A stretch of 62,892 nt of DNA, counting the filler, from Nemertoderma westbladi (lineage: Eukaryota; Animalia; Xenacoelomorpha), in assembly GCA_032718475.1 (NCBI GenBank). It is 3 parts of 3 records of this genome, joined end to end, with 100 filler letters (N's around TTAATTAATTAA, not from the genome) between each part and the next. Parts side by side here need not be neighbours in the genome. Positions count along the whole stretch, not along the records: positions 15,209 to 47,016 come from JAUCBJ010002131.1; 2 more parts are not named here. One strand, written 5' to 3'. The notes beneath the pieces are model-generated. The model did not search any database. It was not told where the DNA came from and worked only from the letters and a program-made list of their open reading frames with translations. Both the position numbers and the translations under genes were made by a program. Of this stretch, positions 10,858 to 40,070 are shown one piece after another (within the stretch, counting starts at the first letter, position 1; each line of letters opens with the position of its first letter).

Positions 10858-12554
10858 GTACTACTTTGTTTTTGGCACCCCCCCCCCCCCTCTCCTCCTC
10901 ATTATACTAGCTAGTATATGTAACTTTTTAAAAAAATGTTCTAGAATATATTATCTATTCATTTAATATAATAAAATCTGTTCTAGAACAAATATTTTTT
11001 TTGTTTCAGAAAAAAAAGAGAAAAAAAACTCGCTAATTTGTTAATCATTTTAATTTTATATTGTATGTTATCTTTGTAGAAATTTTTTATAGTTAGCTAG
11101 TTTTTGTTTCCTTTTTTAAAATGTTCTAGAGCATATTATATATTCATTTAATATGAAAATTTTGTTCTAGAACAAATATTTTTTGTTCTAGAACAAAAAA
11201 CTAGCTAATTTGTTAATTTTTTATTATATGTTATCTTTGTATCACATTTTAATAAAAATCACTAGCTACAATGAAAATTTGTAGTTTGCTAGTACATCAT
11301 GTCCCGTAATATAGTGTCATTTTCTGATGACACGGACCCCCCCCCCCCCCCCAGATTTTTCTACAAATCTTTATCATATTGCTTGAAATTTGAAACACAA
11401 CTAGTTCCACTCACCGTCGATGACCCCATGAAGCCGGAATTTTCGATTTTGCCTTTAAATTTTTTTTATAAGCGTTTTAAAAAAGTGTCTTTTGCGAAAT
11501 CGCACCCTCCGTATCGTGGCCATTCTTCACATTAGTCGTAATTTTTTCATATCATTAGAAAGCTTGCGTTGCAAGGATTCCAAATATGTAACAATATCTG
11601 AATTTCGTTGAGAAACAGCTGAGATATAGGCGTTCAAAGATTGCAAGAATTATTGTTCGCTGAAGGCCATTTATTCTATTTAATAAATACACAATGTTCT
11701 GGAACATTTTGTTTAAGTATGAATAGCTACGCAATAGATATATTGGATAGGAATACCGCTGTTGCCAACCAACTTATAAAATAAATAACACATTCTAGAA
11801 TTTTGTGTATTTATTAAATAGAATAAATGGCCTGCAGCGAACGATAATTCTTGCAATCTTTGAACGCCTATATCTCAGCTGTTTCTCAACGAAATTCAGA
11901 TATTGTTACATATTTGGAATCCTTGCAACGCAAGCTTTTTAATGATATGAAAAAATTACGACTAATGTGAAGAATGGCCACGATACGGAGGGTGCGATTT
12001 CGCAAAAGACACTTTTTTAAAACGCTTATAAAAAAAATTTAAAGGCAAAATCGAAAATTCCGGCTTCAGGGGTCATCGACGGTGATGGAACTAGTGTCAA
12101 ATTTCAAGCAATATGATAAAGATTTGTAGAAAAATCTGGGGGGGGGGGGTCCGTGTCATCAGAAAATGACACTATATTACGGGACATGGTGTAATTGTTA
12201 TTAACACTTACAAATAAAAAAAACCACAAAAAAACAAATTTTTAAATATGTTCTAGAACAAAAAATATTTGTTCTAGATCATTACTTTTTACAATTTAAA
12301 TAGATGATATGTTCTAGAACATTTAAAAAAAGTAAGCTAAACTGGCTTTGATAACAACGAAACACCTAACTAATTAATTTTGTTCTAGAGCAACAATTAT
12401 TTGTTCTAGAACAAAATTAATAAAAAAATGAATAGACAATATGTTCTAGAACATTTTTAAAGTAACAAATTAACAAAAACTTGCTATGTAAAAAAAAAAT
12501 TATTTTTTTTTTGGGGGGGGGGGGGGGGGTGGGGTGCCCAAAACACAGTAGTAC
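10858..12554. mobile_element. Outer fold-back (MITE-like) element with repeated TGTTCTAGAACA palindromes
   Basis: Ends GTACTACTTTGTTTTTGGCACCCC and GGGGTGCCCAAAACACAGTAGTAC are inverted. Arms carry many TGTTCTAGAACA/ATATTT units in mirrored arrangement. A related fragment lies at about 8310-8670. Confidence 0.7.
11295..12191. mobile_element. Inner fold-back MITE, about 400-bp near-perfect TIRs, TA target duplication (Tc1/mariner-type)
   Basis: 11295-~11705 is the reverse complement of ~11790-12191 (CATCATGTCCCGTAATATAGTGTCA ... TGACACTATATTACGGGACATGGTG). TA on both sides. Confidence 0.9.
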
Positions 12555-14188: not shown

Positions 14189-15108
14189 TGTGACGGGATC
14201 AGGGGATCCCGACCGGTTCATTAAGTTACGCGTCGCCGTGTTGTTGAGAATAGGAAAATAGTTTGTTGTTGCTTTGATATTTGTTATAGACATGCAAAAT
14301 GGATAATATATGACAGCACAGTTCACAGAATAATATGATAGCAGTATGCAGTATAATAATTGATATGATGTTGTGACGGGGACGGTGCGAAATGTCACCG
14401 GTCTGCACTGAGTGACTGAGTAAACTAAACCGGTATGACAATATACTGATAATATATATCTAATCACCCTTACGGTACTGTGGCCTTATTACTTAGCGGA
14501 TGCTCTCCCGGTCTCCCATTGGCCTATAACCCACTTCACGCCTCTCACCTCTGCGGGAGTGCTTCCCCCCCCCCCCCCCCCCCGCTGTTGGTTATCTGCC
14601 CTCTCGAGGTGGTTTGACCTCTAACCTCCCTTTGTGTGGCTTTTGGGGTGTGCATTGTCCCCGTTATTGGGTGTGATACGAGATTGATTGTTATCAATCT
14701 CGTATCTCCAATATTGCTGAAAAGGGCGCCACTGCTCTAACTTTATGGGGGTAATGGAGTGGAATTGAATCCGCTCACACTCCCCCCCATGCTATCTTCC
14801 CGGTGAGAAGACCTCTGAGTGCGCTTCAATTCCGCTGGAACCCGATCTACTATCGGGTGTGGGGTGGAGTTCTTTAACTATGGAGTCGGCTTTCCAGGCC
14901 GCTCCCTCTGGGTATGATATTACTACCCCTTCTTGCTGCAACCGCAACCTATGTTGCACCAAGACATCTGACGTCTCTGTTTGAGACAATTGTGGAATCC
15001 TCACACAATTTTAAAAACTCTTTCACTCTCTAAACTCTAACTTCTCACTCTACTCTATCTTACTTCACTCTAACTCCACTGTAACTCCACTCTGCTCTCT
15101 CCCCACAC
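14189..15108 (-). mobile_element. 3' end of Bel/Pao family B copy B2: 3' LTR (14189-14779), PPT (14780-14788) and internal 3' region up to the gap
   Basis: On the minus strand the LTR begins TGTGAGCGGATTCAATTCC and ends GATCCCGTCACA, like the LTRs at 23051 and 29036. It is preceded by the same GGGAAGATAGCATGGGGGGGAG PPT block. Confidence 0.88.
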
Positions 15109-16319: not shown

Positions 16320-17794
16320 CTGGGGAACTTCAGACTACTATGTGACTCCACAAAGAGATATAGCCTATATTGTAATAGATACCGATTGGGGGGTTAAAAT
16401 TAAGTAATAATATATCTAAATAAGTCTCAAACATCTTGCCTCATGACTCGCCCCTCAGAACTCTTAAGCAATATAGCTTCATAGTTTTTAAGGCAAACTG
16501 GTAAACGAGATTTGTTAATTACGCATACCTCGCAGACTTAAGTAATTAATTATACAGTAGGTTAGATCGTTTTGAGAATAGGACCGTTGGAAACAGCGCC
16601 CTCGAAAACCTCAGTACAAATAAAATTAATAAAGATTAACAGGATATAGCTCGTTATAATAAAACATAAATTATAATACAATAGAACAATTAGGGTTGTA
16701 AATAAAAACAAATTAAATAAATTGAAGATAAACTGTATATAACTTATGTATTAAAAGAGGGCCTTATTTAATTATGTGCGGTTGGGCGCACAGGCTGCTT
16801 CATAAAGTACAATGTGAAAGAAGTCAATCTATTGCAAACCAGATGTTTATTATAATTTTCTTAGGCGATTTGACAATGGTTTACATGATAACGAAGCTGG
16901 AGGTTTGAATAATTTAAACTTTGTGGCAGCCCCACGTTGGTATACAGTATAACTCAACATAGGATTCAATGGGTTAGTCATGCTACGTCTAATAAGAGCC
17001 CAAACAGCCACAGATTATTGAGGGGTTGAGATAGGACCAAACTGGCCCATTTTATTTTCGTGTGAGGCTAATTTATGTTTTGGGCCCCGTTCGCATCTTT
17101 ATATTTCATTCTATCATTCTATTGTACGGCAAAAATAATACAAATGTATTGTATATTGTATTATTGTTCCTATTGTATTGTATATTTCATCTACTGTAGT
17201 ACAATCTATTCATCGCGCGTCCCTATCTGATTGATTTATGTCAAATTAAATTGCCTTTGGCAACATTATTTGATACAAATCGATTGATTAAACAATTAAT
17301 TAATTGTTTAATCGACCAATTAATTAATTGTTTAATTAATTAATGACCTACTTAACACCCAAGGTGCGAAGTGGGTCTAACTGTCGCAGAGGATGGCATA
17401 CTATTACTACTGCCCATATTCATCTCAGCAACATTCATTATTCCACATAAAACTATTTCGCAACGACATTCAGATTTTCTTATTATTTGGAATCTTTCCA
17501 TCAAACAAAGTGGGGGTGGGGGGGGGGCGTTGGGTCAGGGGACCAGTATAGTGTGGGGGACCATAGGCCTACAGACAGTAGCATTTCTCCTTAGCCAGCA
17601 TTCCTGAAATAATAGGTAAAACTGTTGAAACAGAGAGACTTGCACCAATACGAAATAAGGCACATAACTAATCACATTGCTTTTAGTTTTTAGTGTTTTT
17701 ATTTAAATTTAATTTGTCTACAAATTTAATTATTGATTATTATTGTGATCATTAATATTTACAACTTTATTGTTCATATCTCATATTTTCCACA

Positions 17795-18294
17795 ATGTTG
17801 GTCTCTTCTGATGCTACTGATGGAGTGGATCAGCATGCATTCTTAACATTCCTGGGAGACTTTAATGCAAGTCTGCATCAATCACCTACATCGCCCTGGG
17901 TCTATAGCAATAGTGTTAACCGAAATTCTGTCCATCCTCAGGATTTTATCTCTGGAAATGGATTGTTTTTGGCTGGAACCCAGTTCAAGAAGCGAACTGG
18001 AAAGCTATGGACTCATAGTGGACCCAGTGGTCACAAGTCCCAGATAGATCATATTCTGTTTCGTAGGAAATACAGGAGCTCTATACAAGACTGTAATGCA
18101 TTTACACTTCGACCCTTCTCCAGTGATCACCGCCTTATTGTGGCCAAGGTAAGACTTAGTCTGCGTGCTAGTAGAACAACGAAATCTGCCTTGCCGCGGC
18201 ATGACTGGTCCTCTGTGTTGCAACAGCCAAGTGTGAGATCCAGCTTCACACTACAGCTGAGCAACAGGTATGAGGCTATTGCCTCTGAGGCGGC
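17795..18294 (+). mobile_element. RTE-type LINE, 5' part (APE endonuclease C-terminal half), interrupted by LTR element A1
   Basis: LGDFNA, WTH.GP.G.KSQIDHIL and SDHRLIVAKVRL are APE motifs. The sequence resumes at 37011 after TSD GCGGC. Confidence 0.9.
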
Positions 18295-19473
18295 TGTAAA
18301 GGCTTTTGCGGATATAACTAGTCATTTTCCCCGCAAAGTACTCTGTAGGTGTTTTAGCGGACATAAAAAGCCGTTTTCTTACTGTGTAGGTGTTTTAGTG
18401 GACATAAAAAGCCATTTTTCTGTATGTGTACTTTAGCGGACATAACAAGCCATTTTATGCCGCAATACGCCAAAATACTCTTAATACAGTGTGGCTTAGA
18501 TGACGAAATCTATCAGCTGATTTTGATGTCGATGTGGAGCTTTTTAACTCTCTTTGTTCAGCTCACTCGACCAATCAGAGCGATTTTCATTTTATTTGCA
18601 CAGAAGCCTACGGGAAATCGCGCAATGCATGACGGTCTTTGTTTACCTTTTTCCTGAGCCCAGAACATCGGCTTTGGAATTATTCTTAGTTTCAGACTTT
18701 AGCCAAACATTCGACGGCTTTGATTATAGGAACGTATAACTGTTATCCTGACACAGCTCAGCACAGCAAACTCATAGCAAACCAAACCAGACTCACCTTA
18801 CCTTTCACCGCATTATTTTACTGCTATTTACTGTCGGTTATTAATTGTTAGAAGTTGATGGATATGTTGTTATATTTGGAGAATATCGATAAATAATCAT
18901 AAAGCCCCAATCTTCTTGATATACTGAAGGTTAGAGAGACCGGTTACCTGTAGCAATTGCGACTTACATTATAGTGGTTTTGGAGTGAATTGAATGCTAT
19001 TTCATAATCCCTACATGTGTCAGTTGCTGTTCTCCTTATATATGATCAAATTTAGTGAAGGTCGGCAGATCAGTGTGCAGCAGTGTGCGGTAGTGTGCAT
19101 GAGTGTGACAATACAAGTACGAAAATCATTAGCCATCCCGTTGTGTTTAGTGTAAGTCATAACTGTTTACATACTTAGAGCGCCACGTCCTAAAGGAACT
19201 GTTAATATTTCCCGAAAGTAAATAATATTTGTCAGAGATTATATATTATCGATTAATCGAATAGTACAGTCAGTCTACACTGCAATAAGGTCAGAGCCTC
19301 CGAATCCAGTCTCCCTTAACTGTGGGTGAATGGTCGCGAATAGGCTGGCTTCGGCTAATGTAACTTTATATCTTATATGCAACAAATACTTGTTATAGGC
19401 TAAAGTCGATTTATAAACTAGAAGACACCTAAAATTAGCGGGTTAAACTGCTAAAGGTCTAAAAGCGCGAACA
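18295..19473 (+). repeat. 5' LTR of A1 (1179 bp)
   Basis: TGTAAAGG...GCGCGAACA. About 15 substitutions and 2 indels versus the 3' LTR by eye. U3 starts with 3-4 tandem ~45-bp GCGGACATAA..AGCC.TTTT units. Confidence 0.95.
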
Positions 19474-19484
19474 ATAACAGTTAT
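19474..19484 (+). promoter_or_regulatory. Putative self-priming primer-binding site of A1 (non-tRNA)
   Basis: ATAACAGTTAT, flush with the LTR end, is the exact reverse complement of LTR 18736-18746 (ATAACTGTTAT). No TGG. Confidence 0.75.
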
Positions 19485-21360
19485 TCTAGTTTCTTTATTG
19501 CAACGTAGGCAATAAAGTCGAAAAGTACCGGTCGACCGGTAACCTGTAGGCCTGACTGCCTAACCACCCGAACCGGTACTTACAGCAGTACAGGTACAGC
19601 AGTATTATTCTATTTTGATAATTATATACCGGTAGGTCTTGATATTTAATCAGGGACGGCCACCCTGGTTTTTTATTGGGGTTTTACTTATTTCTGTCAG
19701 TTTTATTTATCAGTAAGTGTAATATCGAGCAGAAGGCGTGTAAGCCTGCTCAGATTGTATAAATAATTTGTAGGCTGGATTGTTGTCTGGCTGTTGTCAG
19801 GTCTGAAGGGATTGCAGTGTGTGTAGAGTGTATGTCCGATAAAATACTAGTTAGGAACGTTGGGGCATCCAGTGCTGTAAGGTAAATCCCCTCCGAAAGA
19901 ATAAGTCGTACTACTGGGATAGAACGCATACTAACTAACCATTTTGGAGTCTGCATATACTGTAGTTTATTTAGGCTTGATAGTAGTCTGCCAGCATTTG
20001 GTTTGTATTTTGTTTGTGTAGTCTGTAAGGGTAGCGTAATATTTATTATTCAGAGTTTATGCGATTATTCGCAACATACACAACCCCAAGTTTATTCCTA
20101 CAGTAATTGTGCTTGTTATACATACCGTTATAGTTAAATTAACCCCGGTACTACAACAGGGCTGTTTGGCGTAGGTAAAGACTGGTGATTTTATGCTCTA
20201 GTCACTCCAGCAGATACTGTGGTTCTTTTAGCTGTACAAGTATTTTTAACTGCTGGTTATTTGTTGTATAAGTACTTGTACCTAATTTAGGGTTTAGTGT
20301 ACAGTGCTTTCCGAAGGTAATTAGTTTGTAGGCAGTATATTTGTGTTGTAAAGTGGTTAATAGGCACGTTAGCTATGGTTGGCTGCGGTAATTAACTTCT
20401 AGGTAGGAACACTCCAGGTACGTAACGTAGTACTTATAGAGCTGTAAGCTAGAGACTATAAGTCGTCAGACGGTGGTATTTTCTTATCTAGACAACGCAA
20501 TATATTTACTACTGCTTAATTATTTTCAAATACCGTAGTATCCTGTCCGTTGTAATAACCAGAAATTCTAACCCCTTGTTAGGCTGGTTTGTAAATTTCC
20601 TGTAAAATTACCCTAAAATTCGTACCTGTAATTTTTGTGTTTATTTAGAGATTGTAATCTCACCCCTTAATTGTACGTAATTTGCAGTAATAAGTAACTT
20701 AGTAAATTAGAATTATTTGTTTTAGTGTCCAATAAGTAGCACTACACTGAGAGCGTTCAGCTTCTGTGAAGTGACTCCTTACCTAGAAATAATAACATTT
20801 ATTTCAAATATTGTAACAAAACCCATTAAACGGGTATATATATATTATAAATCAACTCAAACCGATTTATAAAATAGTAGGCCTGTCATCCATCAATTAG
20901 GTCTTAATATCAGTTGGACTACTGCTTAATAACAGTAACAAAGTAAAGAAAGGTAACCCTAAAATTCAGAAATTCAGTTATTATAAAATAATTGATATAC
21001 CGGTATTTACGATAGGCTTATTATATTTATTTCTATAAATTTATGCTGAAATTATATACCGGTATTCTGTAATTTTATGTCTATAATTATACTTATATAT
21101 ACTATAAGTGTAAGCTAAGCTGTATACTGGTATTCACAGTAGGCTTATTATATATTTATATATATTTGCGCTGAAATTATATACCGGTATTCTGTGACGA
21201 AACCTAGTCTGTAATAATACTTATATATACTATAAGTGTATACCGGTATTCTAATATATTGTATATATCACGTTACACTGAGTCACGATAGTTGATACTG
21301 AATTACTAGACTTGCTTTAACTGTAGTTCTAGCAGTAAGCATTCAACTGTACAAACAAAC

Positions 21361-23050
21361 ATGGCTGACACAAAGCAAAATCTGTCAGACAGTCTCCTAG
21401 ATACAACAATCTGTGATCCAGATAGGAGTGCGGAACGTTTGAGACCGAAGTTCAACTCCCCTCCTACTGTAAGAAAGGTCATCCCTCCAGTAGTAGTATC
21501 AGACCCTAGGCTAGTCAAACACCGTAGGTCTATCATAGGCACTCGGGCTCAAGTCAAGCGGGACCAAGAGGCAGCTGTTAAACAACAGCAACACTCGAGC
21601 CGAGAACTTATTTCTCAGCGGCCCGATAGCTCCAGTAGTTCAAATACTGTAGAGTTGACACCCGAGCGCGGAGCAAAGATGGCAGAAGCAGTTTATTCGG
21701 ATCCACTTCTCATTCTTCCTGACGCCGTACTCACTAGAGTATTGATTGCGGTGGAGGAACATCAAATGGATTGGGCGAGAAGTAAGCGATCGACCAAGGA
21801 CAGTTATGCGGGATACACGAAGGAGGAACTGAAGTCTATTGTCGAGACGCAATGGAATTTCCCCGGACCCGGACTCCCGTTTAACTTATCGGAAGCTGCC
21901 TGGGAGGACTTATACAGGATGGGAGTGGTAAGGGACACTAGAGATCCAGCTGTGTGGAAGAGGTCGGCAGCAGGATATGTACAGGGATTTTTCAGCTCTT
22001 TGGAGCGATTAGAGGAACAACTGTTTCAACAACCCCAAGGACCTCAAGAGCAGGGAGAGCTGCTTTATCAAGTTCGAGAAAGAATTCTAAGAATCAGACT
22101 AATCCTATCGGCCTTTGAGGAAGCTTCGAAAAGAAGCCAAGACACGTCGTTGCAAGTTGCCGTAAAGACTTGGTTCCAGCGGGTGGGTCTCAAAGTTCAA
22201 GGAACGGCCCAGTGGAAATTTCAGCTGGCTGAGCGCTCAACCCACGGAGAATCAACAGACGCTACCTTTTCTCAAGTGGAAAGCGAAGCGACAGCAGAGA
22301 AACCTCAGAAGAAGGACGCTTTTGACATCTATCTGTCGGACCATCAACGATTTCTAGGTGACGAAGAGTTGAGGAGACAGCTGGCTGGACTTCGTCCTAA
22401 TAGTGAAGGAGCCAAATTTGTGTTGGACGCAATAGATGCGGAAATGTTAGCTGCGAACCAAGCTAAATTTGATGAAAGCATCCGCATCGCTAGGGTTCAA
22501 GAAGAACAAGTAAAGAAAAAACGTATAGAAGACATAAAGACAGCAGCAGCGGCAGCGGCAGAGGCAGAAGTGGAAAGAAAAGCGGCAGAAGTGGAAAGAA
22601 AAGCGGCAGTGGCAGCGGCAGAAGTGGAAAGAAAAGTGGCAGCGGCAGCGGCAGAAGTGGAAAGAAAAGCGGCAGTGGCAGCGGCAGAAGCGGAAAGAAA
22701 AACAGCAGAAGCGGAAAGAAAGGTAGCAGTGGCAGAAGCAGAACAGAGGGCGTCTGAAGAGACCACCCAACTAGAGTTGGAAAATCTTCAAGAGAAGCAA
22801 GACTACATAGATAAACAGAGAACAGCTAGTCAGTGGCAGATGATAAGTCGATCTACTCCCAAAAGACAGGGATTTACATCATCTGATGAAGGCGATACAA
22901 CAGATCCTGAAGGCGGAGGAAATAGATCTCGTTTCAGTAGGCGTAGAAGAACGCCTCAGAAATTGCCTAATTTGCCCCCAGCTGTGAGAATGCAACTAGC
23001 TAGCACAGACTTAGGTAGTACAGAACCCACAGACCAAATTATTAGAGTAG
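21361..23050 (+). pseudogene. A1 Gag, N-terminal part (interrupted by element B1)
   Basis: Open from ATG 21361. Removing B1 and one AGTAG joins it in frame to 29583 (..IIRV-E-RLPTIVDEP). Contains Ala/Glu/Lys coiled-coil repeats AEVERKAAVAA. Homologous to 45895-47016. Confidence 0.85.
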
Positions 23051-23266
23051 TGTTAGCGTATTCAATTCCGCTAACACAAACCCATAAAGTAAGCCGTTAA
23101 GCAATATTGGGGGCCACGAGGTTGATTACCCAATCTCGTGTCACCCCAACAAAGTGGGAAGGAGAAACACACAATAGGGGTCAGGGGCCATACCCCTGAC
23201 AGAGAGAGAATAGCAAGGGTGAAGGGAAGCACTTCAGAGGGGGGCAAAGGGTGCCAACAAGGATAT

Positions 23267-23360
23267 TAGCCAATCAGGGGGGAAGCATCGACTAGGTACT
23301 GTAACAAGGCCAAACCGTGCAATATATATTACCGGTCGATGCAATACCCATTCAGTCATC
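23267..23360 (+). promoter_or_regulatory. Pol II promoter in B1 5' LTR (CCAAT, TATA, initiator)
   Basis: AGCCAATCAG near 23268, TATATAT at 23323-23329, and TCAGT initiator-like motif at 23352-23356, about 31 nt downstream of the TATA. Confidence 0.6.
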
Positions 23361-23592
23361 TCAGTACAGTCAGGCAGAACGGTGACAGTTAAGACCATCA
23401 CCGCCGTCACCAATATATACTACCATATCATTACCGGTATACTGTGCTATCATTACTGCATTACTCCGTCTATCTCATATACATATTATCAACAATACTG
23501 GAAGAACGACAAACTTTTTTCTTTCATTCACACGGCGGGGACGCGTATGAAACAACACCGGATAAACCGGGATCCTCTCGGATCCCGTCACA

Positions 23593-23601
23593 GTCTTAAC
23601 T
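23593..23601 (+). promoter_or_regulatory. Putative self-priming primer-binding site of B1
   Basis: GTCTTAACT, flush with the LTR end, is the reverse complement of LTR 23387-23395 (AGTTAAGAC). Confidence 0.7.
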
Positions 23602-23665
23602 TACCAAGGCCTACAGACTTAACACTAGGCCTGCCGAACTGTGACTGACAGCTACTAAAGTAAAG

Positions 23666-26600
23666 ATGAGTCGAGAAGGAGAAGCGACACCGCCGCGGAC
23701 CCCGGACGACGATCTAACGATCCGCGAGGCCACGGCGAGACGGTATCAACCCACGACGCCGGATCCGTCGACGAACGATCCAGCGATCCAAGATGAGGGG
23801 GGCCGTCTACAAGGAGAGGACGAGTCGGGAGTCGAAAGGGAGAAAGACAAGTCGACGCGGAGCGAGGGTCGACGTACCGATATCGCCGACCAGCCACAGG
23901 CCGAGGGCGATGGACGGCCCACCGGAACGGCGACGGTGGGGCCGCCGGTACAACGTCGGACCCGGAGAGATGGAGGAGAGGTCGGCGACGAGGACGTCGG
24001 GGTTTCTGATCGACTTCGACGGGCCTACAACGCGACCCGGAAACTACTTAAGGAGGCCATAGAGGGGGCGAGGATAGACGAGGTAAAGTTGACAAAGGGA
24101 CTAGGTGAGTCGGATAAACATTTTGGTTATCTAAAGCGTTTTGGGCAGGAAGAACTAGCCAGCGAGAGAGCGAGAGGGGTTGCCAGCGAACTGTTTGAAC
24201 TATGGGAATGTGGGGGTATGGAACCTAGCGTAGTGTACGTAGGTCCATACTTAGTCGGTGCCCGGGGAGTAAAATTAGTGGGTTGGAAGAGACCTGAGGA
24301 GGGCGAATCCGAGGTTAAACCCGAGGATGCGGTCTCGTCGGTCGGAGGAAGTTCCGGGAGGCGGGGGAAAGTTGGTGGGACGGGGGGCGACGGGAGTCCG
24401 TCGCAACCGATAAGTCTGCTACATCCTCCGAAAAAGAAAGAAGGGTGCGGGAGATAAATCTGGCGTATGATTTAGAAATTGCGGAGCTAGCCCAGAGTGT
24501 TAGAGAGTGGGAAAGGGAGGATAGAGAGAGAGCCGAGAAGTGTAGAGATCAGGAGAGAGAGATAGAGAGTAAGCGCGTGCGGGATGATTTGCGTGCCCGA
24601 CTAGAGTGGCTTACGCAATATCAAGCCAAACTGAATCAGCGCCGACTAGAACTGGCGCGGTTGGAACTATCAGAGAGTGAGACCCCACTTACATACACCG
24701 GGCGAGAGAACCAGAACTGGTGTAGCCGTACGGGCGGGGGGGGGGGGGGGTAGTAGTAGTACGTTAGAAATAGTTGATATTAATAGTACCATAGTAGATA
24801 ACCCTAATCCCTTTATTACAGGAAATATTTTACCCAGTAGGCCTAATTTAAATTTAAATTCAAATAATATTAGTTCAAATATTCAGAATAATTCAAGTAA
24901 TTCTAATTTAAATAATTTAAATAATAATCCCGTCTCAGATCCTAATAATTTAATTGATTTAACAAATAATATTGGGAATGGTGCTATTAATATGAGCGTG
25001 TCGGACGTACATAACCCGGCAGACGGGGGCCTGGTAGGCCACGCAGTTAATAGGCAGGAGGTGGCGGGGTTGAGCCAACCCGACGGCGGCCTGGTAGGCC
25101 ACGTAGTTGGTAGGCAGGAGGTAGTGGGGTTGAGCCAACCCGAGGTGGGCCTGGTGGGCCACGCAGTAGTAGAGAGAGAGGCGGGGGTGAATAGACCCAG
25201 CCATAGTAAAGACAGTGCGTCGACTAGAGAGGGGTGTAGAGACGAAGTAAGAGATAGTGAAGTTAGATGTGGCGAGTGGGGGGGGGGGGCTACCGGCGCC
25301 CCAACACATAAGGTTAGTGGCGAGAGAGGGGGGGCAGAGAATGCCCCACAAGAGGGGTGTAGAGGTGTAGTAAGAGATAGTGAAGTTAGAAGTGGCGGGT
25401 GGGGGGGGGGGGCTACGGGCACCCCACCGCGAGAGATTAGTAGCGAGAGGGGGGGGGGGCAGAGAGTGTCCCACAGGCGTCGGCGGATAATGCGCGGGCC
25501 GAGCTAGGTAAACCGCAACACCCGGCGACGGAGAGTAATAGGGGGATTGCGAGTATCCCCAGCGGCGTGCGATTGAGCAGAGAGAGGCAGGTTGACGTCG
25601 CGAGAGGGCAGACGAAGCGTCGAGCCCGATTAGAAGAGGGAAGAAGAACAATGGAGTTTAACCGGGAGGTCGACGAGAGATCTCACGAGCCGGAATACTG
25701 CACTGAAAAGAGAAGAAGAGGAGATAGTAGAAAAAGCGTCGCCACGAACGATAGGAGTGCGAGGACGGATAACGGACCGTCGATAGTAGAGATGGACTTA
25801 GGGAGTCAGTGGGGTCGAACTTCGGGAGATTGCCGTCGCCCCGGAGAAACGCACCGCACACCAAGAGAGGGGTACAGGACGTCCCAATATAAAGTCGAGA
25901 ACAGGAGAGGGGATTGAAGAGAAGCTTCCCGACGGGATATAGCTGCCGATCGAGAGTGCGGTAGTCGTGGGGAGATTCGAGATTCAAGAAGATTAAACTT
26001 CGGTTCGAAAGGGCACATGCAGACTGCAGGACATACTGTAGGCCTTACTGCACATACTATTATAGGCCATGCTGGGAGAGTTATAATAGGCGATAGGGTA
26101 GCGCGAACGACGGGATTAAACCCGGAAGCCGCGGAGTACATACCGGTAGGTAGGCAAGAAGTGGGTAGGCCTATATCGGTACAGCAGCATGACTATAATA
26201 CACAGGGACATAACATATATCCAGGGAAGGGGAGAGTTATTTGAGATAGATGTATGGGCCCCAATATATTAACATCAACCCCAGTACCAAACATACCGGC
26301 CGGGGGGGGGGGACAGGGTGACATTCCCCCATCACAATATCGACAATATACCCCAATAGGAGCAAGAACATCGAATTCCCTGGACGAGAACAGGTCGTGC
26401 GGACAGTCGCTACCACACGCGGCCATACAGGGGACTGCTAGTCCACAGCTAGCTGGTAGGGCCACACCGTGGCAGGGACAGAAAGAAAATAACACCAAAA
26501 ATAAACACAATCCCAATATACCCAGTAGGCCGAGTCTAGGCAATCGAAACACTAAATCGGTACATATAAACCTACGCGCGATACGTGAAGGACTATACAG

Positions 26601-26820
26601 GAAACGCTATAATCCAGGATTCGAATGTCAATTACATCGGGACGGAACCCATAAGACCAGGAATTGTAAGCACTGGCAAGCGTTGCCCAAACGAGATCGT
26701 GTAGCCTACACAGACGCAAACGGACTATGTCATCGATGTGTGGTAAAAGGACACAGATCTGGAGAGTGTTGGAAAGGGAGAGGATGTGAAAGGGGCAGAG
26801 AAGCCCATGAGCAAACATAA
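23666..26820 (+). pseudogene. B1 Gag remnant (frameshifted)
   Basis: Successive ORFs include VKPEDAVSSVG (Bel/Pao gag P.DS.S motif), a coiled-coil, internal 60-bp and ~123-bp repeats, and terminal knuckles CQLH...H....C, CHRC....H....C. No pol follows. Confidence 0.75.
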
Positions 26821-27213
26821 AGGAGCCGGGAAAGTAGAAGGAGGCGTGTTGCATACGCACGCGGGGCTGGCACGGTGCGAGGGGGCATTGCATGGACGGG
26901 CGTCGTGTATACCGAGGTACGAGCGGGGGTCGTCGAGGCCTTTAATGCCAGCGCACATACGAAGGGGGAGGCCAGCAGAGGTAGTACCGAAGAGAGTGTG
27001 GCGAAGAGTTAGAGGGCGTATAGGAGGGCAGCGGGAGAGTGCCTACTGGAAGAAGGGGCACCTGAGAGTTTTTAGTCGTCCAAAGTTTTGGACTGAGGGG
27101 GGTGGGAATGAGGGCGAGACGCCCTTCCCACGCATAAAATATAAAATAATTATTTAATTAAAAATAATTAAATAATAAAGTAGGTAGAAGTTAGGTAGTA
27201 AGAGAGTAGTACC

Positions 27214-27618
<405 letters not shown>

Positions 27619-28094
27619 GAGGTACGTAGTACCGGTGGTTAGTAGAGTTAGAGGTTAGTAAGAGGGTATGTAGTACCGGTTAGTAAGAGTAGAGTTGGAA
27701 GTTAGTAAGAGTAGTACCGTTAAGAGAGAGTTAGCAGAGTAGAGTTAGTAGTAGAGGTTGTGGGCACCGTAAGCGCCACGTAGAAAGTAGTAGCAGTAGA
27801 GGTTGTGGGCACCGTAAGCGCCATGTAGATAGAGTTAGTAGGGGATGCGCTGAACTTAGTGGGGCACGGGCGTGATGACGTGATTGATGTAAGAGCAGGG
27901 TATGTTAATTAGGGTGGGTGCCGGGCACAAGAGGTGCCGGGCACAAAAGTTAGTAGAGAGTTAGTAGAGTTAGTTGAGTTAGTAGAGAGTTAGTAGAGTT
28001 AGTAAGAGTTAGTAGTAGTTCACATAATTAACGTACCCACTCTGCCGGCACTCAGAGCGTCACGTGCAGTCGAGTAGACGAAAGGGAGTAAGAT

Positions 28095-28480
28095 GTAGAG
28101 AGTGTTAGAAGTAGTAGAGAGGGCACATAGGGTGCCAGAGAGTAGAATAGTAGAGAGGGCACATAGGGTGCCAGGTAGTAGAGTTAGAGAGTTAGAGGTA
28201 ATAGAGTAGTTGAGACGGGCACATAGGGTGCCAGGTAGTAGAGTTAGAGAGTTAGAGGTAGTAGAGTAGTAGAGACGGGCACATAGGGTGCCAGGTAGTA
28301 GAGCTAGAGAGTTAGAGAGTAGAGTAGTAGAGACGGGCACATAGGGTGCCAGGTAGTAGAGTTAGAGAGTTAGAGGTAGTAGAGTAGTAGAGAGGGCACA
28401 TAGGGTGCCAGGTAGTAGAGTAGTAGAGAGGGCACATAGGGTGCCAGACAGTAGAGTGGTCGTGGGCACCGTGAGCGCCA
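28095..28480. repeat. Purine-rich ~36-60-bp tandem repeats with GGGCACATAGGGTGCC cores in the B1 3' region
   Basis: Seven copies of GGGCACATAGGGTGCCAG separated by AGTAG/AGTTAG-rich spacers. Confidence 0.85.
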
Positions 28481-29582
28481 CGTAGTTAGAAGAGTCGGTA
28501 AGAGTTAGAGAGAGTTAGTAGAAGTAGAGAGTTAGTAGGAGTTAGTTAGACTTAGTAGAGTTAAAGTTAGTAGGCTTAGAGAGATAGTTAGAGTTAGTAA
28601 GAGAGTCAGATAGTTAGCAAGTAAGTAGTAGGTAGATAGTATGATAGCACAGGGGTAGCTTTAGAAATTAGGGCCTTAGGGGGTGACAGAGAGTAGAGAG
28701 GTGATAGTGCGGAGTGCGAAGAGAGCGTGGGCGCAATTCAAGTGTGGGGGAGGAGAAGTGAGAGGAAGAGTGTGGGACGAGGAGGTCCGGGAGTATGCGA
28801 GAGTTAGGGTGAGAGTGGTGAAAGTGTTGGGGAAACAAAAATCGTGTGAGAGGAGCGCACGATCGGCCCGACACGAGTCGCCAGAGTGACATCATACCCA
28901 TAGGGAGCGGCCTGGAAAGCCGACTCCAAGAAAATAATACCACCCCACGCCCGATACTAGATCGGGATCCAGCGGAATTGTAGCGCACTTGAGTTGGATG
29001 CTATCTTCTTACCGGGAAGATAGCATGGGGGGGAGTGTTAGCGTATTCAATTCCGCTAACACAAACCCATAAAGTAAGCCGTTAAGCAATATTGGGGGCC
29101 ACGAGGTTGATTACCCAATCTCGTGTCACCCCAACAAAGTGGGAAGGAGAAACACACAATAGGGGTCAGGGGCCATACCCCTGACAGAGAGAGAATAGCA
29201 AGGGCGAAGGGAAGCACTTCAGAGGGGGGCAAAGGGTGCCAACAAGGATATTAGCCAATCAGGGGGGAAGAATCGACTAGGTACTGTAACAAGGCCAAAC
29301 CGTGCAATATATATTACCGGTTGATGCAATACCCATTCAGTCATCTCAGTACAGTCAGGCAGATCGGTGACAGTTAAGACCATCACCGCCGTCACCAATA
29401 TATACTACCATATCATTACCGGTATACTGTGCTATCATTACTGCATTACTCCGTCTATCTCATATACATATTATCAACAATACTGGAAGAACGACAAACT
29501 CTTTTCTTTCATTCACACGGTGGGGACGCGTACGAAACAACACCGGATAAACCGGGATCCTCTCGGATCCCGTCACAAGTAG

Positions 29583-31763
29583 AAAGACTCCCTACTATAG
29601 TAGATGAGCCTGAAATAATTAGGCCTGTTCTCGAAGCCACCCCTTCTGTGATAGAGACCCCTGTACTTCCAGAACCTAACTCTAAATTCCCTTTGCACAG
29701 TACTAAACTACCTGTATCCAGTAGGACAGTTCCTCAGTCAACTCCGGTCCTGGACGCCGAGCGAGACATTAACAATTTGTCACCCGTCGTCCCTCGTCTA
29801 CCCGCTACTATGTTGGCGGCTCCCGCTTCGGTGGTAGAGTGGGTGGATGAGCGACGGCGGGGGATGGATATTCTCCTCGGGCAGATGGAGGAGAATCAGG
29901 CACGCTCCTCCCAGCAGGTCCGAGAGTTGGAGGGTACTGTTCAACAGTTAAAGGGAACATTAAGAGAGAGTAGGTTAGAATTGCAGGAAGTGCAGCAGAG
30001 TATCGCATTAGAACGCGATAAGTTAGTAAATCTACAAAAGGGTATACCACCACCCTCTGTAACCATGTGTCAACCTGTTAGGTCTGAAGTATTTCATGCG
30101 CAAGGTGTGGAGCCTACACACATCTATACTGCTAGTGAAGTAGAAACTGCTATAGTAAACCCTATTAAGGGTAATTATAAACCTGTTGACAATGATATTC
30201 CATATAGACCTATATAATCCAAGAAATTTATATACCGATAACTTGATATTAAATAACACGATGGCCCAAGAAAGTTTTACGCGTCAAATGGCTAGAACCG
30301 AAGCCCGTCAAGCGGTAAAGGTGGGAGAGATCGTCAAGTTCAACGGAGATGAGATGAAATGGTTACCTTTTAATGAATATTATAAAGATAACATACAGAA
30401 CTCTGTGCTATCTAACGGAGAGAAACTTAGATTCCTCATCGAGTGCTTGGAAGGATCTCCCAAGTTAATGGCGTTAAAGTTTATTGGACATCCAGATGGA
30501 TTAAGACAAGTTTGGGATACACTAAACATCAGGTATGGTAATAGGAATAACATAGCTAGGTATTTGTATGCGAAATTAGTAGCGCCACGAAAGTTTCTTA
30601 GCACCGGGATTATAGAATTTTCCGATGAGATCCAGGACATTTGTAGACAATTAGATTGGCTAGGTAAGTCTCATGAGTATCAGAGTTCTATGGTTATTGG
30701 AGCTGTAGCATCTACCTTGCCAAAGGGTGGAGTGGGTACTCGTTGGGACAAAAGAGTTCTGTATATGATGGAACAACAACGAAGAGACCCTACCATGGCT
30801 GATCTCATGTCATTCTTAGATGGAGGAGTAAAATTACAGCTCCTAAAGCAGTCCAGAGAGAAGACACTGGAAAATAAGGTAAGTGAGAAACCCGTTTCTA
30901 GGAGAAAGGTAACACCAGTGTGTTATACAGACGACGGCGAAAGCCAGGCCTCTCAAGAGGAGAACAACGGGAAAGACACCAAAAGATCTTACTATGTCAA
31001 CAAAGCGCCTAAGGGCGTAAGTAAATTTAAGTCTCGAACTAGTGATAGGAGAGAACAGGTAACAAAAACTCCTCCTACTTCTCCTAAGAGAATTCATGTA
31101 AGAAAGCCTGAGGAAAGAACGAGTGTGCACAACACTACCAAAGGTAAAGTAAGTAACATCAAACCAAAATGTGCATTGTGTGACGGGCCCCACCGTTTAA
31201 GTGTGTGTGATGAATTCTTAAAGAAATCCCTAAAAGATAGGCGTGATGTCATGTGGGATAAGCGATTGTGTTATAATTGTCTCAGACAAGGACACCAACG
31301 GCGAACCTGTTACTCCGATGCGAGGTGTGCTAAGTGCGGCGCGAAACATCATATCTTGTTGCACACCGAATTTGAAAGAAACAGCCCGAGTCAGGTAAGT
31401 GAGTCCGAACTACATGTCCAATTCAGTGATGTGAACGACACTGACCAAAGTTCTGAGATGGAAGGATTCTACACGGATGAATTCTCAGACAAAAACGAAT
31501 CCTGTTATCTAATAAACACCGCAGTGTATCGAGCACTTACGTATGAGACTGAAACCGATAGTGAGCTCCCCCTAACTATTCCTGACCGACAACCATCTTG
31601 GAAAGCGCCAACTTCCAATGTAGGAATCCGAGAATTTCCCGTAGTGCAGTCAAGAGTAGGTTGGTACTTCACTGGACCTTCCCGTAGGACACTCATGGAA
31701 AGGCTACCCAAAGATCAGGTCCATCAGGTGAGTGAATGGGAAGAAGACATTAGTGAGGGATAG
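29583..31763 (+). pseudogene. A1 Gag, C-terminal part: DUF1759-like capsid region and three zinc knuckles
   Basis: KFNGDEMKWLPF..Y..NI....LSNGEKLRFL..CL.G and L..RYGN (Pao DUF1759), then CALCDGPHRLSVC, CYNCLRQGHQRRTC and CAKCGAKHHILLH. One frameshift near 30210. Confidence 0.92.
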
Positions 31764-31819
31764 ACAACAACAACTGAGGGAACACCATACTCCTCAGATA
31801 ATGACGATATTAACTCTAA

Positions 31820-32462
31820 TGTAGATCAATGGAGACATTGCCTTGGGACGATTAATCCAGCCGACATCGCTTCCAGATGAGCAACTCCTCAAGAACTGAT
31901 AGATACTCCAGACTGGTTAGGTGGACCCGACTTCCTAAGTAAAGAAGAGGATGAATGGCCTCCTCATCTCACCACGGCTGAGAATAGACAAGCCAAGGGA
32001 GCGGAGATAGTCAAACCTAAAACCCGGACGAGTAAATCAAAGTTATTTAAACCCACGATTGATCTGTCTGTACTACACATTTCAGGGGACGACGCTGTGG
32101 GTCTAAACTCCCCCGCCACAAATAACTCTGTTGTGGAAATCAGAGAAAGAGACTGGAAATCTGGAACACCAGACGTCTCGCAGGGACTCTCACCTCTCCT
32201 GCAGGGAGCGATAAACCACTATAGCTCCTGGAATCGGCTTTGTAAGGCCGTCGTGTATTTGAAGCGATGTTTCTATCGTCACTATTCCAGAACGAAGAGG
32301 AAACCTGGAATTGTATTCGAAACACAACAACTCAATCGCCCAGTTGGTCGTTTATGTTTACTGGAAAGAGACCGAGAACTGTCCGGAAACTATGGAAGGC
32401 AAGATACTCTTCCCACGACCACCTCCCTAATCCAACAAACATCTAGGGACTCCCCAACGTAA
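31820..32462 (+). pseudogene. A1 pol remnants (end of RNase H region fused to extreme integrase C-terminus)
   Basis: QWRHCLGTINPADIASR*..W.GGPDFL....WP, YSSWNRL..AV.Y and RPVGRLCLLE remain. Protease, RT and integrase core are absent. Confidence 0.85.
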
Positions 32463-34169
32463 CAGCGTCTGGAGTGGGTGTGTGACTATATTATTTTATA
32501 TTTTGTTTTTATTATTTTATATTTATGTATGTATTATTATGTAATTTTATTATAATCGTTTTCTTTAATTTTATTTAGTAGAATGTTATTTTAGCGATTA
32601 TTTAGTAGATTAGTGCAATATATATTAGTGTTTATTACTTACTTACTTATATTATATTATATATTTAGTGCAATGGCGAGAAATAATTCTTTTTCTCTTT
32701 CCTTACTGTCCGTATCATAATATAAATACGTGACTACAGTAAGATGAAATTTCCGTACTTATTAAAGTACAATAAAGCTCCTACTATACTCAAGTATTAT
32801 TGGTAAGTAGAGTATTAGGAATGCAAAGTTCAGATCCTCGTGTCTCGGCTAAACCAAGCTCTGGGTAGACCTTGGAAACGACTTGCCTCTTCTCACTGAC
32901 ATTGCTTCTTGCAATATTGCTCTCCTACCGTATATTAAATAATACATATAGTAGCGTGATGTCCCTTTAACAGTAGCGTAAAACGCAAAATCAATCTGTT
33001 AAACCCTTTGACCATCTGTAATTCTAGTCGATTAAGATATCGCGGCACCCACCAATATACTTGAAAGACAAAATTCTAGAATCAATGGTTAACGTCCCCA
33101 GACATGTTCTGGAATAAACCAGTGCCCATCTTAAATATTAACTATTAATATTTATAAAATCTGTCAAACAAATACAATAGAGTAAATACTTAAAAGATAA
33201 CTCTAGAAAATCTATAAATTAAAATCTGTTAAATTTTAGATCCTTTAAAATTCTAGTCGATTAAGATATCGTAGCACTTACCGATACTTTTAAAAGGACA
33301 AATTTCCTAGAATTAAGGATCCTAGTCCCCAGACATGCTCTGGAATAAAATTATGTCTGTTTTAATGATAAATAATAAAATTTACGGGAATAAATTTAAA
33401 TTCATCTTTTTAATGAATTTGATAAATTGTCATTTTTATACAATTTATAACATTCCCAAAATTCCATTAATTAATAGATCATGGGAGCGGAGATTCACCC
33501 TATTATGTATATTAGTGTGCGAGAATCTCCAATATATAGTCAATAGCCGATAAAATTCATAAAATCATGTATAAAGAAGAATATTGACAATTAAAGAATT
33601 ACTATTAAATAGCATCCCAGATCTGTATGCATGAGAATTACCCTAATTCTACTGCAAGCTTTCCATAATGTCACCATGGCAACAACCACGCTAGAATTAG
33701 AAGTGAGTTAAAAGAACAATAAAGCTTACCCCATTGAATAGCATAAGGAATAAATAGCACACTGCTAGTATCCAAGGATACATAATAATAACGTGGCATT
33801 CTGAAAGGCACTTGACTAACGGACAAATGGCCCGAATGTGTGCGGTTTGTGACAGTTGTGTGGAATTTGTGCGTTTATAGGTGAATGTTACTACTAAAGT
33901 GTGTTTACAGTAGCGAGTCGCAGTTGTGAAAGTAGCTCTACCTCTGCAGTAAGAACCTGAAGTAAATCTAAGCCCTTGGGACGGACAGTGGAGTGACTCG
34001 CGCTGGTTGTTGTTGTCGTTGTGCAGCTACTATGTTGGCGATAGGCACATCGGCGACAGTACATCAGCGCTGAGGATCTTGCGCTGTCCGGGGGCCATGA
34101 GGGGTAGGCAGCGACGCCCGCTAGCCTAATTATAACTAATTATATTATTTATAAACTCATATAGCAGCT

Positions 34170-35720
34170 ATGACTGAGTTGATATAAGATGATCTTGGTA
34201 TCAGGGAGCGATATACTCTACCGTTGCAAGCGTTTGTTGATAGCTTAATACGCGGCGACGCTAGTCCAACTACTACGGAGGACGATGGTCGTTATATCGA
34301 ACCGCCAATGTCCCAGGAGCAACTCACTCGTGAATTGGACTATCGAAAATTCACTGCTCACTATACGCATCGTAATGGTACGCATATGGACTTCTTAACT
34401 ACTGTTCATCCTATCGATTTACACAATACGGACGATGTCGACACCGAAAGGGAAATAGTCCTATTTAAATATCATACCCAGCGGAGTAGGAACGATAAAC
34501 TGAGAATCGAATGCGAAAATTCGATTCGAAATCGACTTGAAAGAGAAGATGTTAAAGAACCGGATAAACGCAGTGACTCCAACGTATATTTGGAATGCTT
34601 GAGAGAAACATTGTAAAACTAAAGAAAGATCACCCGCGTTTCCCCTAGAAGACGTGCGTCTTTGGTATTATTGCGATGAATGCCCAAGACCCAACCAACA
34701 AACGGAAGGACATAAACATCCGCGGAGACGTTGTTCTAAACACAGTTTTACTCGCTATATTTACGGGAGTTTCGAGCGAAACTTGTTTGATGTATCACCT
34801 ACGCTCGCTTGACTCAAACGATCCTTAAATAAACCTATGATCAGAGTTCCGGAATACTCGGTCAGACCTCCTCACTCCCTAGTGAGACCTCAGACTCTTG
34901 ATCCTAATAGTATCACGGATCCTCCCGAACTGTACTCACTGTTCAAAGATCTAGTGTTACCCGAACAATTAGTCGGTGGCACTCCGGTTGTGGGCTCCCT
35001 AAATATTTGCCCATCTTACCTAGCCGGATTGGGACGCGGACATCTAATATCGCCATTCAACCGTATCATCGTCCCAGTTTAACCCGATACAACCTGTCAC
35101 CGAGGTGGAGGAGAGAGTTGTACGAAACGCGTTGGACACTATTCGTCTAAAGATCGGAAAAGGAACCTACAATTGTTTAGAGAAACGTAAATTGCAGCAA
35201 CAAGTCCAAGCGGTAAACGAATTAGCTTTATCTCAGTTCGATCAGGAAATCCAGAATCTATAAGAAGATATCGAACTTGGACGACTCTACTTTCTGCAAG
35301 AGTTTGGACGAATGTTTTCAACAACAAGCGGAGGAAAATCAGCTCGAGGAGAAGCATATCGATTCCGATAGAGCCTGAGAACGCGAGTTGGAAAGAATCA
35401 TCAAACCGAGGAAATTTCTCTCTACACACGGTCCACCTACCGCTCTCGTGCAAACGACCCGTCAGGGACCAGTAAGAGCTGCTGTCTTAAAACGCGCTCT
35501 CAAGGTTGTTCGACCTCGTTCCACTGAGGTTGATACCGATCAACCGGGTACCTCGACCGGCGGATACACCGACCGTAACCCTAAACCTTCTGATGCAATT
35601 GCATTGCACCCTTCACCCAAGAGTTATAGCCCTCCTAGTAAAGTGGCTCGCCCCAAAGAGAAAGGGACTCTTGCTAGCCTCAAAAAACTGCGTAAACGCC
35701 GTTGGCGTAAGAAAGACTAA
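34170..35720 (+). pseudogene. Decayed accessory ORF (about 500 codons) between pol and 3' LTR of A1, unknown function
   Basis: ATG 34170 is in frame with the 34224 ORF (one TAA). Consecutive ORF pieces 34224-34616, 34837-35082 and 35388-35720 are bridged by open stretches. Cys/His cluster, coiled-coil and basic C-terminus. Confidence 0.65.
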
Positions 35721-35798
35721 CTGTTTAGAGTATTTTTATATTTTAGAAACTGTGATTTTTTATATTTTATAGAATTAAATCCCATTTTCTGGGAGCGG

Positions 35799-37005
35799 TG
35801 TAAAGGCTTTTGCGGATATAACTAGTCATTTTCCCCGCAAAGTACTCTGTAGGTGTTTTAGCGGACATAAAAAGCCGTTTTCTTACTGTGTAGGTGTTTT
35901 AGTGAACATAAAAAGCCATTTTTCTGTATGTGTACTTTAGCGGACATAACAAGCCATTTTATGCCGCAATACGCCAAAATACTCTTAATACAGTGTGGCT
36001 TAGATGACGAAATCTATCAGCTGATTTTGATGTCGATGTGGAGCTTTTTAACTCTCTTTGTTCAGCTCACTCGTCCAATCAGAGCGATTTTCATTTTATT
36101 TGCACAGAAGCCTACGGGAAATCGCGCAATGCATGACGGTCTTTGTTTACCTTTTTCCTGAGCCCAGAACATCGGCTTTGGAATTATTCTTAGTTTCAGA
36201 CTTTATCCAAACATTCGACGGCTTTGATTATAGGAACGTATAACTGTTATCCTGACACGGCTCAGCACAGAAAACTCATAGCAAACCAAACCAGACTCAC
36301 CTTACCTTTCACCGCATTATTTTACTGCTATTTACTGTCGGTTATTAATTGTTAGAAGTTGATGGATATGTTGTTATATTTGGAGAATATCGATAAATAA
36401 TCATAAAACCCCAATCTTCTTGATATACTGAAGGTTAGAGAGACCGGTTACCTGTAGCAATTGCGACTTACATTATAGTGGTTTTTGAGTGAATTGAATG
36501 CTATTTCATAATCCCTACATGTGTCAGTTGCTGTTCTCCTTATATATGATCAAATTTAGTGAAGGTCGGCAGATCAGTGTGCAGCAGTGTGCGGTAGTGT
36601 GCATGAGTGTGACAGATAACAAAGCATTTCCTAAAGAATGCGCTTTATACGAAAATCATTAGCCATCCCGTTGTGTTTAGTGTAAGTCATAAATCTGTTT
36701 ACATACTTAGAGCGCCACGTCCTAAAGGAACTGTTAATATTTCCCGAAAGTAAATAATATTTGTCAGAGATTATATATTAACAATCAATCGAATAGTACA
36801 GTAAGTCTACACCGCAATAAGGTCAGAGCCTCCGAATCCAGTCTCCCTTAACTGTGGGTGAATGGTGGCGCATAGGCTGGCTTCGGCTAATGTAACTTTA
36901 TATCTTATATGCAACAAATACTTGTTATAGGCTAAAGTCGATTTGTAAACTAGAAGACACCTAAAATTAGCGGGTTAAACTGCTAAAGGTCTAAAAGCGC
37001 GAACA
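35799..37005 (+). repeat. 3' LTR of A1 (1207 bp)
   Basis: Direct repeat of 18295-19473, preceded by the PPT and followed by the TSD. Confidence 0.95.
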
Positions 37006-37010
37006 GCGGC

Positions 37011-39514: not shown

Positions 39515-40070
39515 ATCATATCATTGTACATCTTCTTGTTCATTATTTTCCCTCTGGAGTCCTCGAACCCTTCCTCTTGGTCGGGATCCCATCTCTCCAC
39601 GGTTTTCTGACTCTTAGTTTCTCCCACAGCGCCAAAGCGTCTTCTATCTGAGTGACGCTCGCGAAATGGGTGGTGTTGGGGATCCCGAGACAGCGCATCC
39701 CGTGGGCGTGACGCCACTCGGCGAAGTGTCGTTGGAAGGCCTTGGGACCGCGGTAGGTCTGGTTGCCGCAGATCTCGCACGAGAAGTTGAGATTCAAGCC
39801 GTGGAGTTTGTAGAGCCAGTAGGGGATGGGTTTACCATCCCACCCGAGTGGCAGGTACTTCGGGTTGTAGGGGACTTCCTCTTCGTCGTCCTCATCCTCC
39901 TCCTCTATCATATCGGCGTCATCCTCGGTGTCCCGCTCGTGGCCGGTTCTCGCCTGTTTGCGTTGGACGTTCTCTCGCGTCGCTTTCCGTTGTTCTCCAA
40001 CCATCTCCACCAGTTTGTAGATTCTCGCTTCCATCGCCGCGATTTGACGTTGTTTGTCGGATTTGTCGAC
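39515..40070 (-). pseudogene. SF3A3: Terminal exon of splicing factor 3A subunit 3 (SAP61/Prp9), frameshifted
   Basis: [35 protein letters not shown]...[47 protein letters not shown] is SF3A3. Acceptor TTTCGTGTATTTAG precedes 40070. A 1-nt frameshift near 39615 separates [19 protein letters not shown]. Confidence 0.9.

Follow-up and report, generated by a model that had tools for sequence, protein, structure and literature searches.

In the genome of Nemertoderma westbladi, we found an LTR retrotransposon whose primer binding site, GTCTTAACT (23593-23601), is the exact reverse complement of nine nucleotides of its own LTR, AGTTAAGAC (23387-23395), located about 200 nt away. The site starts on the first base after the LTR-terminal CA, and self-priming in cis, analogous to that of Tf1, is probably its best explanation; the LTR segment would be the candidate core of a self-primer, with the predicted primer 3′ end at 23395. 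The element (hereafter B1) lies in a window of 62,892 nt, composed of three parts of assembly GCA_032718475.1 joined with 100 N's (the parts may not be neighbours in the genome); window positions 15,209-47,016 correspond to JAUCBJ010002131.1. Coordinates refer to the window, and all the features of B1 are on the plus strand. The motifs and pairings listed around this site in an earlier note on the same DNA were all present, which confirms its observation.

B1 is a complete LTR element (23051-29577), and the self-comparison of the window identified it as the sole LTR pair around the finding. Its 5′ LTR (23051-23592, 542 bp) and 3′ LTR (29036-29577) both have TG...CA ends, differ from each other at 7 of 542 bases and are flanked by the 5-bp target site duplication AGTAG (23046-23050 and 29578-29582). 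There is no spacer between the LTR end and the primer site, nor between the polypurine tract (29027-29035) and the 3′ LTR. The internal region contains a degenerate gag in several frames (23666-26820), with a triple Cys-His knuckle at about 26623-26811, and simple and tandem repeats where pol would be (27214-28603). The empty site also exists, as contigs of two public DNA runs join 23050 directly to the sequence past the 3′ duplication. In the contigs of four public DNA runs, from at most three samples, family B is represented by many divergent copies.

B1 is inserted within the first ORF of A1, a larger element (18295-37005, target duplication GCGGC). Pieces of a non-LTR retrotransposon endonuclease and RT lie on both sides of A1 (17756-18436 and 36979-38190), so the nesting order is LINE, then A1, then B1; a further piece of the same LINE is found at 7121-8301. 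On the basis of the few LTR differences and of the intact duplication, B1 was inserted recently and moved carrying its primer site. Overall, B1 is a young, non-autonomous, BEL/Pao-derived LTR retrotransposon.

The triple Cys-His gag knuckle is a feature of BEL/Pao elements, and its spacing was taken here from eight fetched BEL/Pao polyproteins. Using a profile of the zinc-knuckle regions of these eight proteins, built with the window sequence excluded, the B1 knuckle obtained an E value of 4e-8, second among 1,209 window peptides after the A1 gag. It also matched the family A gag along 51 ungapped residues (E 1e-4), and its first and third knuckles are degenerate. B1 further fits BEL/Pao in the TG...CA LTR ends, the polypurine tract and the short target duplication. 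The capsid-like domain DUF1759 was absent from B1 in Pfam and tblastn searches, consistent with its loss in a non-autonomous copy; it is present in the downstream gag of A1, and all eight long relatives of the A1 gag carry Peptidase_A17. Pol was absent as well (no match to the eight BEL/Pao polyproteins, no RT and no integrase), and for this reason B1 is filed as BEL/Pao-derived, neither as a full member nor assigned to a sub-clade.

Wider searches for relatives added little. None of 443 candidates was a homolog of the B knuckle ORF, the protein atlas returned for the B knuckle only zinc-knuckle leads, all under 0.9, and scanning viral contigs for BEL/Pao relatives gave 3, 7 and 20 pattern matches, none of them confirmed. 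The pol remnant of A1, used as query, retrieved two proteins and was uninformative. A 4,004-residue database protein (P0009) matches this short remnant in 25 stretches, and may be an assembly artefact.

Then, we evaluated how often such a primer site would arise by chance. The 9-mer was held by 37 of 20,000 dinucleotide-shuffled B1 LTRs (0.2%), and three non-PBS LTR flanks taken as controls (LTR ends followed by target DNA) reached best flush complements of 4, 6 and 4 nt. No TGG, with which a tRNA-type site starts, occurs in the 200 nt after the B1 5′ LTR, and no tRNA genes are present in the window. The nine-nucleotide core is shorter than the 10-nt cut-off for plant self-primer calls given in the available part of PMC6317226.

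One could argue that in family B the match arose by chance, or through a single accident of copying in a decayed element, and that real B elements are primed by tRNA. Indeed, it is a match of nine nucleotides in one copy (for the primer site of family B, n = 1) that has lost pol and the capsid domain, and the leader carries a partial repeat of the site, in a hairpin loop at 23618-23. Against this stand the shuffling frequency and the recent movement of B1 with the site already present, as its seven LTR differences and intact duplication indicate. Furthermore, contigs of three of the four public runs cover the B primer site, and among the 40 of 153 variants listed the changes start just past it, at 23602-03; among the 12 joints listed, and as read by eye, one contig retains the site to 23601 and continues into a shorter leader that still resembles the R-facing blocks. 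We consider an accidental origin very unlikely.

A primer made by splicing was rejected for this window: with GT/GC..AG introns of at least 40 nt removed, it would reach at best 10 nt in B1 versus 9 unspliced, and 6 nt in A1 and 11 nt in A2 versus 11 unspliced. A pattern scan with the conserved end of the B LTR found eight stretches in metagenome contigs (54-69% G+C), judged to be chance; one of the eight has a 29-nt window match, without LTR homology past the motif. The same pattern gave no matches in viral contigs.

The B1 LTR includes a candidate CCAAT box (23270-23274), found also in the diverged copy B2 described below, and a candidate TATA box, TATATAT (23323-23330), which is the sole TATAWAW of the LTR and is identical in B2 at 8/8 positions. 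An initiator-like TCAGT follows at 23352-23356, and the TATA-to-start spacing rule places the predicted +1 at 23354, 31 nt past the TATA box. The primer core is 3′ of this single TATA box and thus within the predicted transcript, at nucleotides 34-42 of the RNA, from which a primer of about 42 nt is predicted; the TATA box and the initiator are those of the earlier note, which had put this length at about 40 nt. The U5 also contains six-base palindromes, ACGCGT (23540-23547, a block identical in B2 at 8/8 positions) and twice GGATCC (23570-23585), which are candidate dimerisation signals.

By analogy with Tf1, the B1 RNA would fold back and bring 23387-95 onto the primer site, and the RNase H of an RT supplied in trans would cut after 23395. 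The new 3′ end would be extended across U5 to give minus-strand DNA. As B1 is without RT, the enzyme would come from an unseen autonomous partner. Plus-strand synthesis would copy the primer back into the site, and the pair would stay matched as families diverge.

A comparison with family A, all of whose primer features are on the plus strand, is informative on this last point. BLASTN of B1 against the window, with E up to 10, found B2 and none of the family A LTRs, in agreement with the view that the LTRs of the two families are unrelated. Nevertheless, two family A copies, A1 and A2, have 11-nt primer sites flush with the LTR end: the site of A1 (19474-19484) is the complement of its candidate self-primer at 18736-18746, and that of A2 (43920-43930) of its candidate at 43092-43102. 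The two 11-nt complements occupy the same aligned LTR position and, in this one pair of copies, A2 differs from A1 by three bases on each side, with pairing restored at 3/3. Flush complements of 11 nt were found in 2 of 5,000 and 26 of 20,000 shuffles. Both A1 and A2 are without TGG at the LTR end and the family A gag is BEL/Pao-type. A fixed tRNA is not expected to covary in this way, so the compensation favours an element-derived primer; it is the pattern expected if the site is re-copied from such a primer. Covariation evidence comes from family A alone.

The earlier note had proposed that families A and B share the same multi-way junction between the first part of the RNA and the leader, as a clade-wide mechanism. 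The shared junction was not supported. In family A, the sequence upstream of the 11-mer pairs with the leader no better than shuffles do (1022, 351 and 1162 of 1,500), and the extra helix of A1 joins U5 to the leader instead (9 bp, 19415-23/19484-92). As a point against self-priming by fold-back, the primer helix of family A was not predicted in any of six whole-region foldings, its partners being about 730-820 nt apart. What stands of the overall interpretation is that two families with unrelated LTRs, BEL/Pao-type gags and no TGG have flush self-complements; this, and not a shared junction, is common to A and B.

Other features of family A were recorded. A U5 hairpin of A1 (19435-54) is kept in A2 with one-sided changes and, together with the U5/leader helix (19415-19492), is nearer to the Tf1 pretzel than the fold of B is. 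The A2 leader (43920-43998) has the primer site twice, and the second (43987-98) pairs with 12 LTR nucleotides, one more than the first; the repeated primer sites in the leaders of A2 and B1 could be traces of mis-aligned strand transfer. The A1 11-mer is nearly palindromic. The A1 primer site begins with ATAAC (19474-19478), as do the first five bases of the Tf1 site in the available part of PMC11042837; A2 differs, and this is probably a coincidence. The U3 of family A begins with tandem repeats of 41 bp or 49 bp, which differ between A1 and A2 (18339-18456, 35843-35960 and 42690-42826).

We then folded the R region of B1 with its leader. The segment 23352-23670 reached −81.6 kcal/mol (z −3.72), none of 100 shuffles was equally stable, and the whole structure drawn in the earlier note was obtained. 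In it, GGTG (23381-84) pairs with TACC (23602-05), one pair being G-U; the surrounding block CGGTGACA (23380-23387), identical in B2 at 8/8 positions, has 23602-05 and, locally, 23398-403 as alternative partners. The 5′ part of R (23356-23377) would act as a clamp on the leader through two helices, of modest significance and sensitive to RNA length. One of them, 23356-61 with 23664-69, lies over the first AUG and was absent from the earlier drawing. The other had been drawn as 23361-77/23631-48 with 15 pairs: these can be drawn, but 23376-77 compete with a leader hairpin and 13 are predicted (23361-75/23633-48). The leader blocks complementary to R span 23631-23669 and include the first AUG (23666-68). 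The GCCTA/TAGGC hairpin (23609-13/23626-30) folds, in a longer form of 7 bp (23607-13/23626-32, within 23607-23632), with a probability of 0.89-0.97 in six of seven B1 foldings and of 0.96 in the seventh; its loop is the one that holds the partial repeat of the primer site. The only Rfam match was at chance level and outside the fold.

At the end of the LTR, the U5 hairpin CGGGATCC/GGATCCCG (23568-23587) stops 5 nt before the LTR end, and its stem is kept in B2 at 7/8 pairs. All the kept pairs are invariant, and there is no covariation; this may equally reflect conservation of the LTR end. The LTR end and the first two bases of the primer site (23587-23594) form a perfect 8-bp complement of leader 23638-45, a rival helix. 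Beyond it, no further helices of at least 6 bp were found that pair the leader with the last 150 nt of the B1 LTR. Two segments of the leader are rival partners for the primer site, and the leader alone can fold over it.

Pairing of R (23354-95) with the leader gave −35.3 kcal/mol, a value reached by 4 of 3,000 shuffles. The clamp beyond the 9-mer core contributes −24.6, matched by 122 and 121 of 5,000 shuffles, a modest significance. Its two segments, picked after the claim was seen, had no better partners than each other when 517 LTR windows and 2,815 element windows were compared. The primer helix had a probability of 0.76-0.99 at all ten RNA 3′ ends from 23610 to 23790. At three out of three longer ends (23850, 23900 and 24000) it fell to 0.06 or less, and forcing it cost 1.5-4.6 kcal/mol; it did not exceed 0.5 for ends 23800 and 24100, nor for starts 23051, 23378 and 23387. 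The loss of the fold with starts 23378 and 23387 implies that, in the prediction, the 9-bp core needs the upstream clamp. In folded RNAs of more than about 440 bases, the clamp is lost and replaced by the 23587-94/23638-45 helix or by other local folds. Thus, the idea that about 40 nt at the RNA 5′ end clamp onto the leader beats shuffles modestly but fails at longer 3′ ends, and the predicted 40-nt clamp is plausible but unproven. If it forms, extra helices would keep the 5′ part of a primer of about 42 nt, counted from the predicted start, on the leader and would offset the weak 9-bp core.

These foldings bear on the possibility that the primer is element-derived but acts in trans, coming either from the second RNA that is packaged or from a short RNA that host small-RNA processing makes from the LTR. 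Such a primer would give the same covariation; foldings of long RNAs and of family A do not predict the fold-back, and the isolated R segment folds with the core largely in a loop. On the other hand, cis fold-back is the only demonstrated route, in Tf1 (PMC7175516, available part), and the partners in family B are only about 200 nt apart. A trans-acting primer appears unlikely to us.

The R-leader pairing could also serve regulation or packaging, as a switch or by masking the gag AUG, with priming carried out by something else, such as a tRNA half or another host RNA matching the site. Coherently with this, the predicted structure covers the first AUG and the same leader bases take part in several mutually exclusive folds; half-tRNA primers are known in copia lineages, according to the available part of PMC6317226. 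However, the match starts exactly at the first post-LTR base in B1, A1 and A2, where a regulatory helix has no need to start; in addition, 3 of 11 positions differ between the A1 site and the A2 site, each time in keeping with the LTR of the same copy. This explanation, too, has little probability in our judgement.

Self-priming in cis, as the preferred reading, makes an expectation for B2. This diverged copy (14189-14779, minus strand) consists of a 3′ LTR and the preceding polypurine tract; it is identical to B1 at 331 of 542 positions and has no primer site in the window. The clamp block is conserved at 9 of 17 positions, not above the LTR mean (331/542), and pairing of the B2 R with the B1 leader was equalled in 1019 of 5,000 shuffles and is unsupported. 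At the position aligned with the B1 core, where the alignment is not unique, B2 has ATTTCGCAC; if self-priming is true, a B2-like primer site is expected to begin with GTGCGAAAT or a near variant.

An extension of this reading is that B1 represents a BEL/Pao lineage whose self-primer is capped and long, at about 42 nt, and in which the leader is a gapped complement of the whole primer and has roles both before cutting and after copying; we regard it as rather doubtful. Before cutting, the pairing would hide the gag AUG and thereby turn the message RNA into a genome RNA. Once copying is done, the plus-strand end would reach the primer 5′ end, as it meets no modified base that could stop it, and the same complementarity would allow the second strand transfer by landing this end on the minus strand. 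Speculatively, the copy of a long primer would need such a place to land; this could be the reason for the gapped complementarity of the leader to the first 42 nt.

Several other features were observed in the window. A 41-bp satellite (47156-58118, 268 copies, 94% matches) begins where the similarity of the A2 element to A1 stops. Adjoining the satellite there is an exon of a Tectonin/Hyd_WA propeller lectin (58434-59297), with relatives 30-42% identical in amphioxus, priapulid and starfish. A third BEL/Pao element is represented by a broken RNase H-integrase region (745-2460), which comes directly after an A-like LTR fragment. A fragment of the SF3a60/Prp9 C-terminus (39543-40067, minus strand), without visible introns, is possibly a retrocopy, and a large imperfect inverted repeat (11102-12341, 82% over about 1.2 kb) is possibly a foldback or MITE-like element.

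Taken together, B1 is likely a case of a known mechanism, self-priming, in BEL/Pao, a group not described as using it. So far, Tf1 is the only case in which self-priming has been demonstrated, and for some gypsy and copia lineages it has been predicted; if it is true for BEL/Pao, self-priming lineages would occur in all three LTR superfamilies, and if the long-primer extension is also true, the primer design would be unlike that of Tf1. The presence at one animal locus of two BEL/Pao-type families with unrelated LTRs and flush self-matched sites suggests that tRNA-independent priming is stable in part of the group. This bears on whether self-priming or tRNA priming arose first in LTR elements (a question raised in the available part of PMC3601003), on the escape from control by tRNA fragments and on annotation pipelines that demand a tRNA site. 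Family B is a compact test case, with primer and site about 200 nt apart, a clear TATA box and exact predicted start and cut.

Among known systems, the ICTV family Belpaoviridae (genus Semotivirus) is described as having tRNA-primed replication, the site being an 18-nt complement of tRNA-Arg or tRNA-Gly, and BEL/Pao replication is termed poorly understood (PMC8742986). B1 resembles this family in LTR length, TG...CA ends, polypurine tract, overall size and triple Cys-His gag knuckle, but it has neither the 18-nt tRNA site nor pol. In the literature covered, which did not include the Suzu paper, the primary papers on Tf1 or the databases Repbase, Dfam and GyDB, we found no report of BEL/Pao self-priming; the available main text of four BEL/Pao surveys (PMC554778, PMC3118150, PMC8556966 and PMC6238403), supplements aside, contains no discussion of the primer binding site.

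The closest likeness is with Tf1/sushi elements, whose self-priming involves a pretzel of three duplexes (PMC10085805, PMC4600332, PMC5341516). As reported in the parts of these and related sources available to us, the Tf1 RNA's first 11 bases pair with the primer site with RNase H cleavage falling between bases 11 and 12 (PMC7175516); at the cDNA 3′ end, a single-stranded DNA copy of the primer is made (PMC11042837), and two helices of the pretzel join PBS-adjacent bases to LTR sequence downstream of the primer. Like Tf1, Tf2 and Tj1 of fission yeasts, B1 has no tRNA site, has a post-LTR site that complements its own R and has extra adjoining helices, in B1 predicted ones. Unlike them, it has a BEL/Pao-type gag and is not a member of this group of Ty3/gypsy chromoviruses with chromodomain integrase. 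Its core is not at the predicted RNA 5′ end, and its leader pairs mainly upstream of the core. Likeness to the pretzel is limited to the U5 hairpin and the rival helix between the U5 end and the leader.

In Tcn1 (gypsy) and TAR (copia; Houba, Osr-1) elements of plants and fungi, self-priming has been predicted, according to the available part of PMC6317226, from a complement of at least 10 nt whose start lies 0-5 nt after the LTR. As in B1, the prediction comes from sequence, but superfamilies and hosts differ. Finally, for GalEa, with its conserved hairpin site, and for bivalve TRIMs without PBS, an RNA structure has been proposed in place of a tRNA site (PMC6934838, available part). These are LTR elements without a tRNA site, as B1 is; their inverted repeats, however, lie inside the internal domain, whereas the pairing of B1 joins R to a position flush with the LTR.
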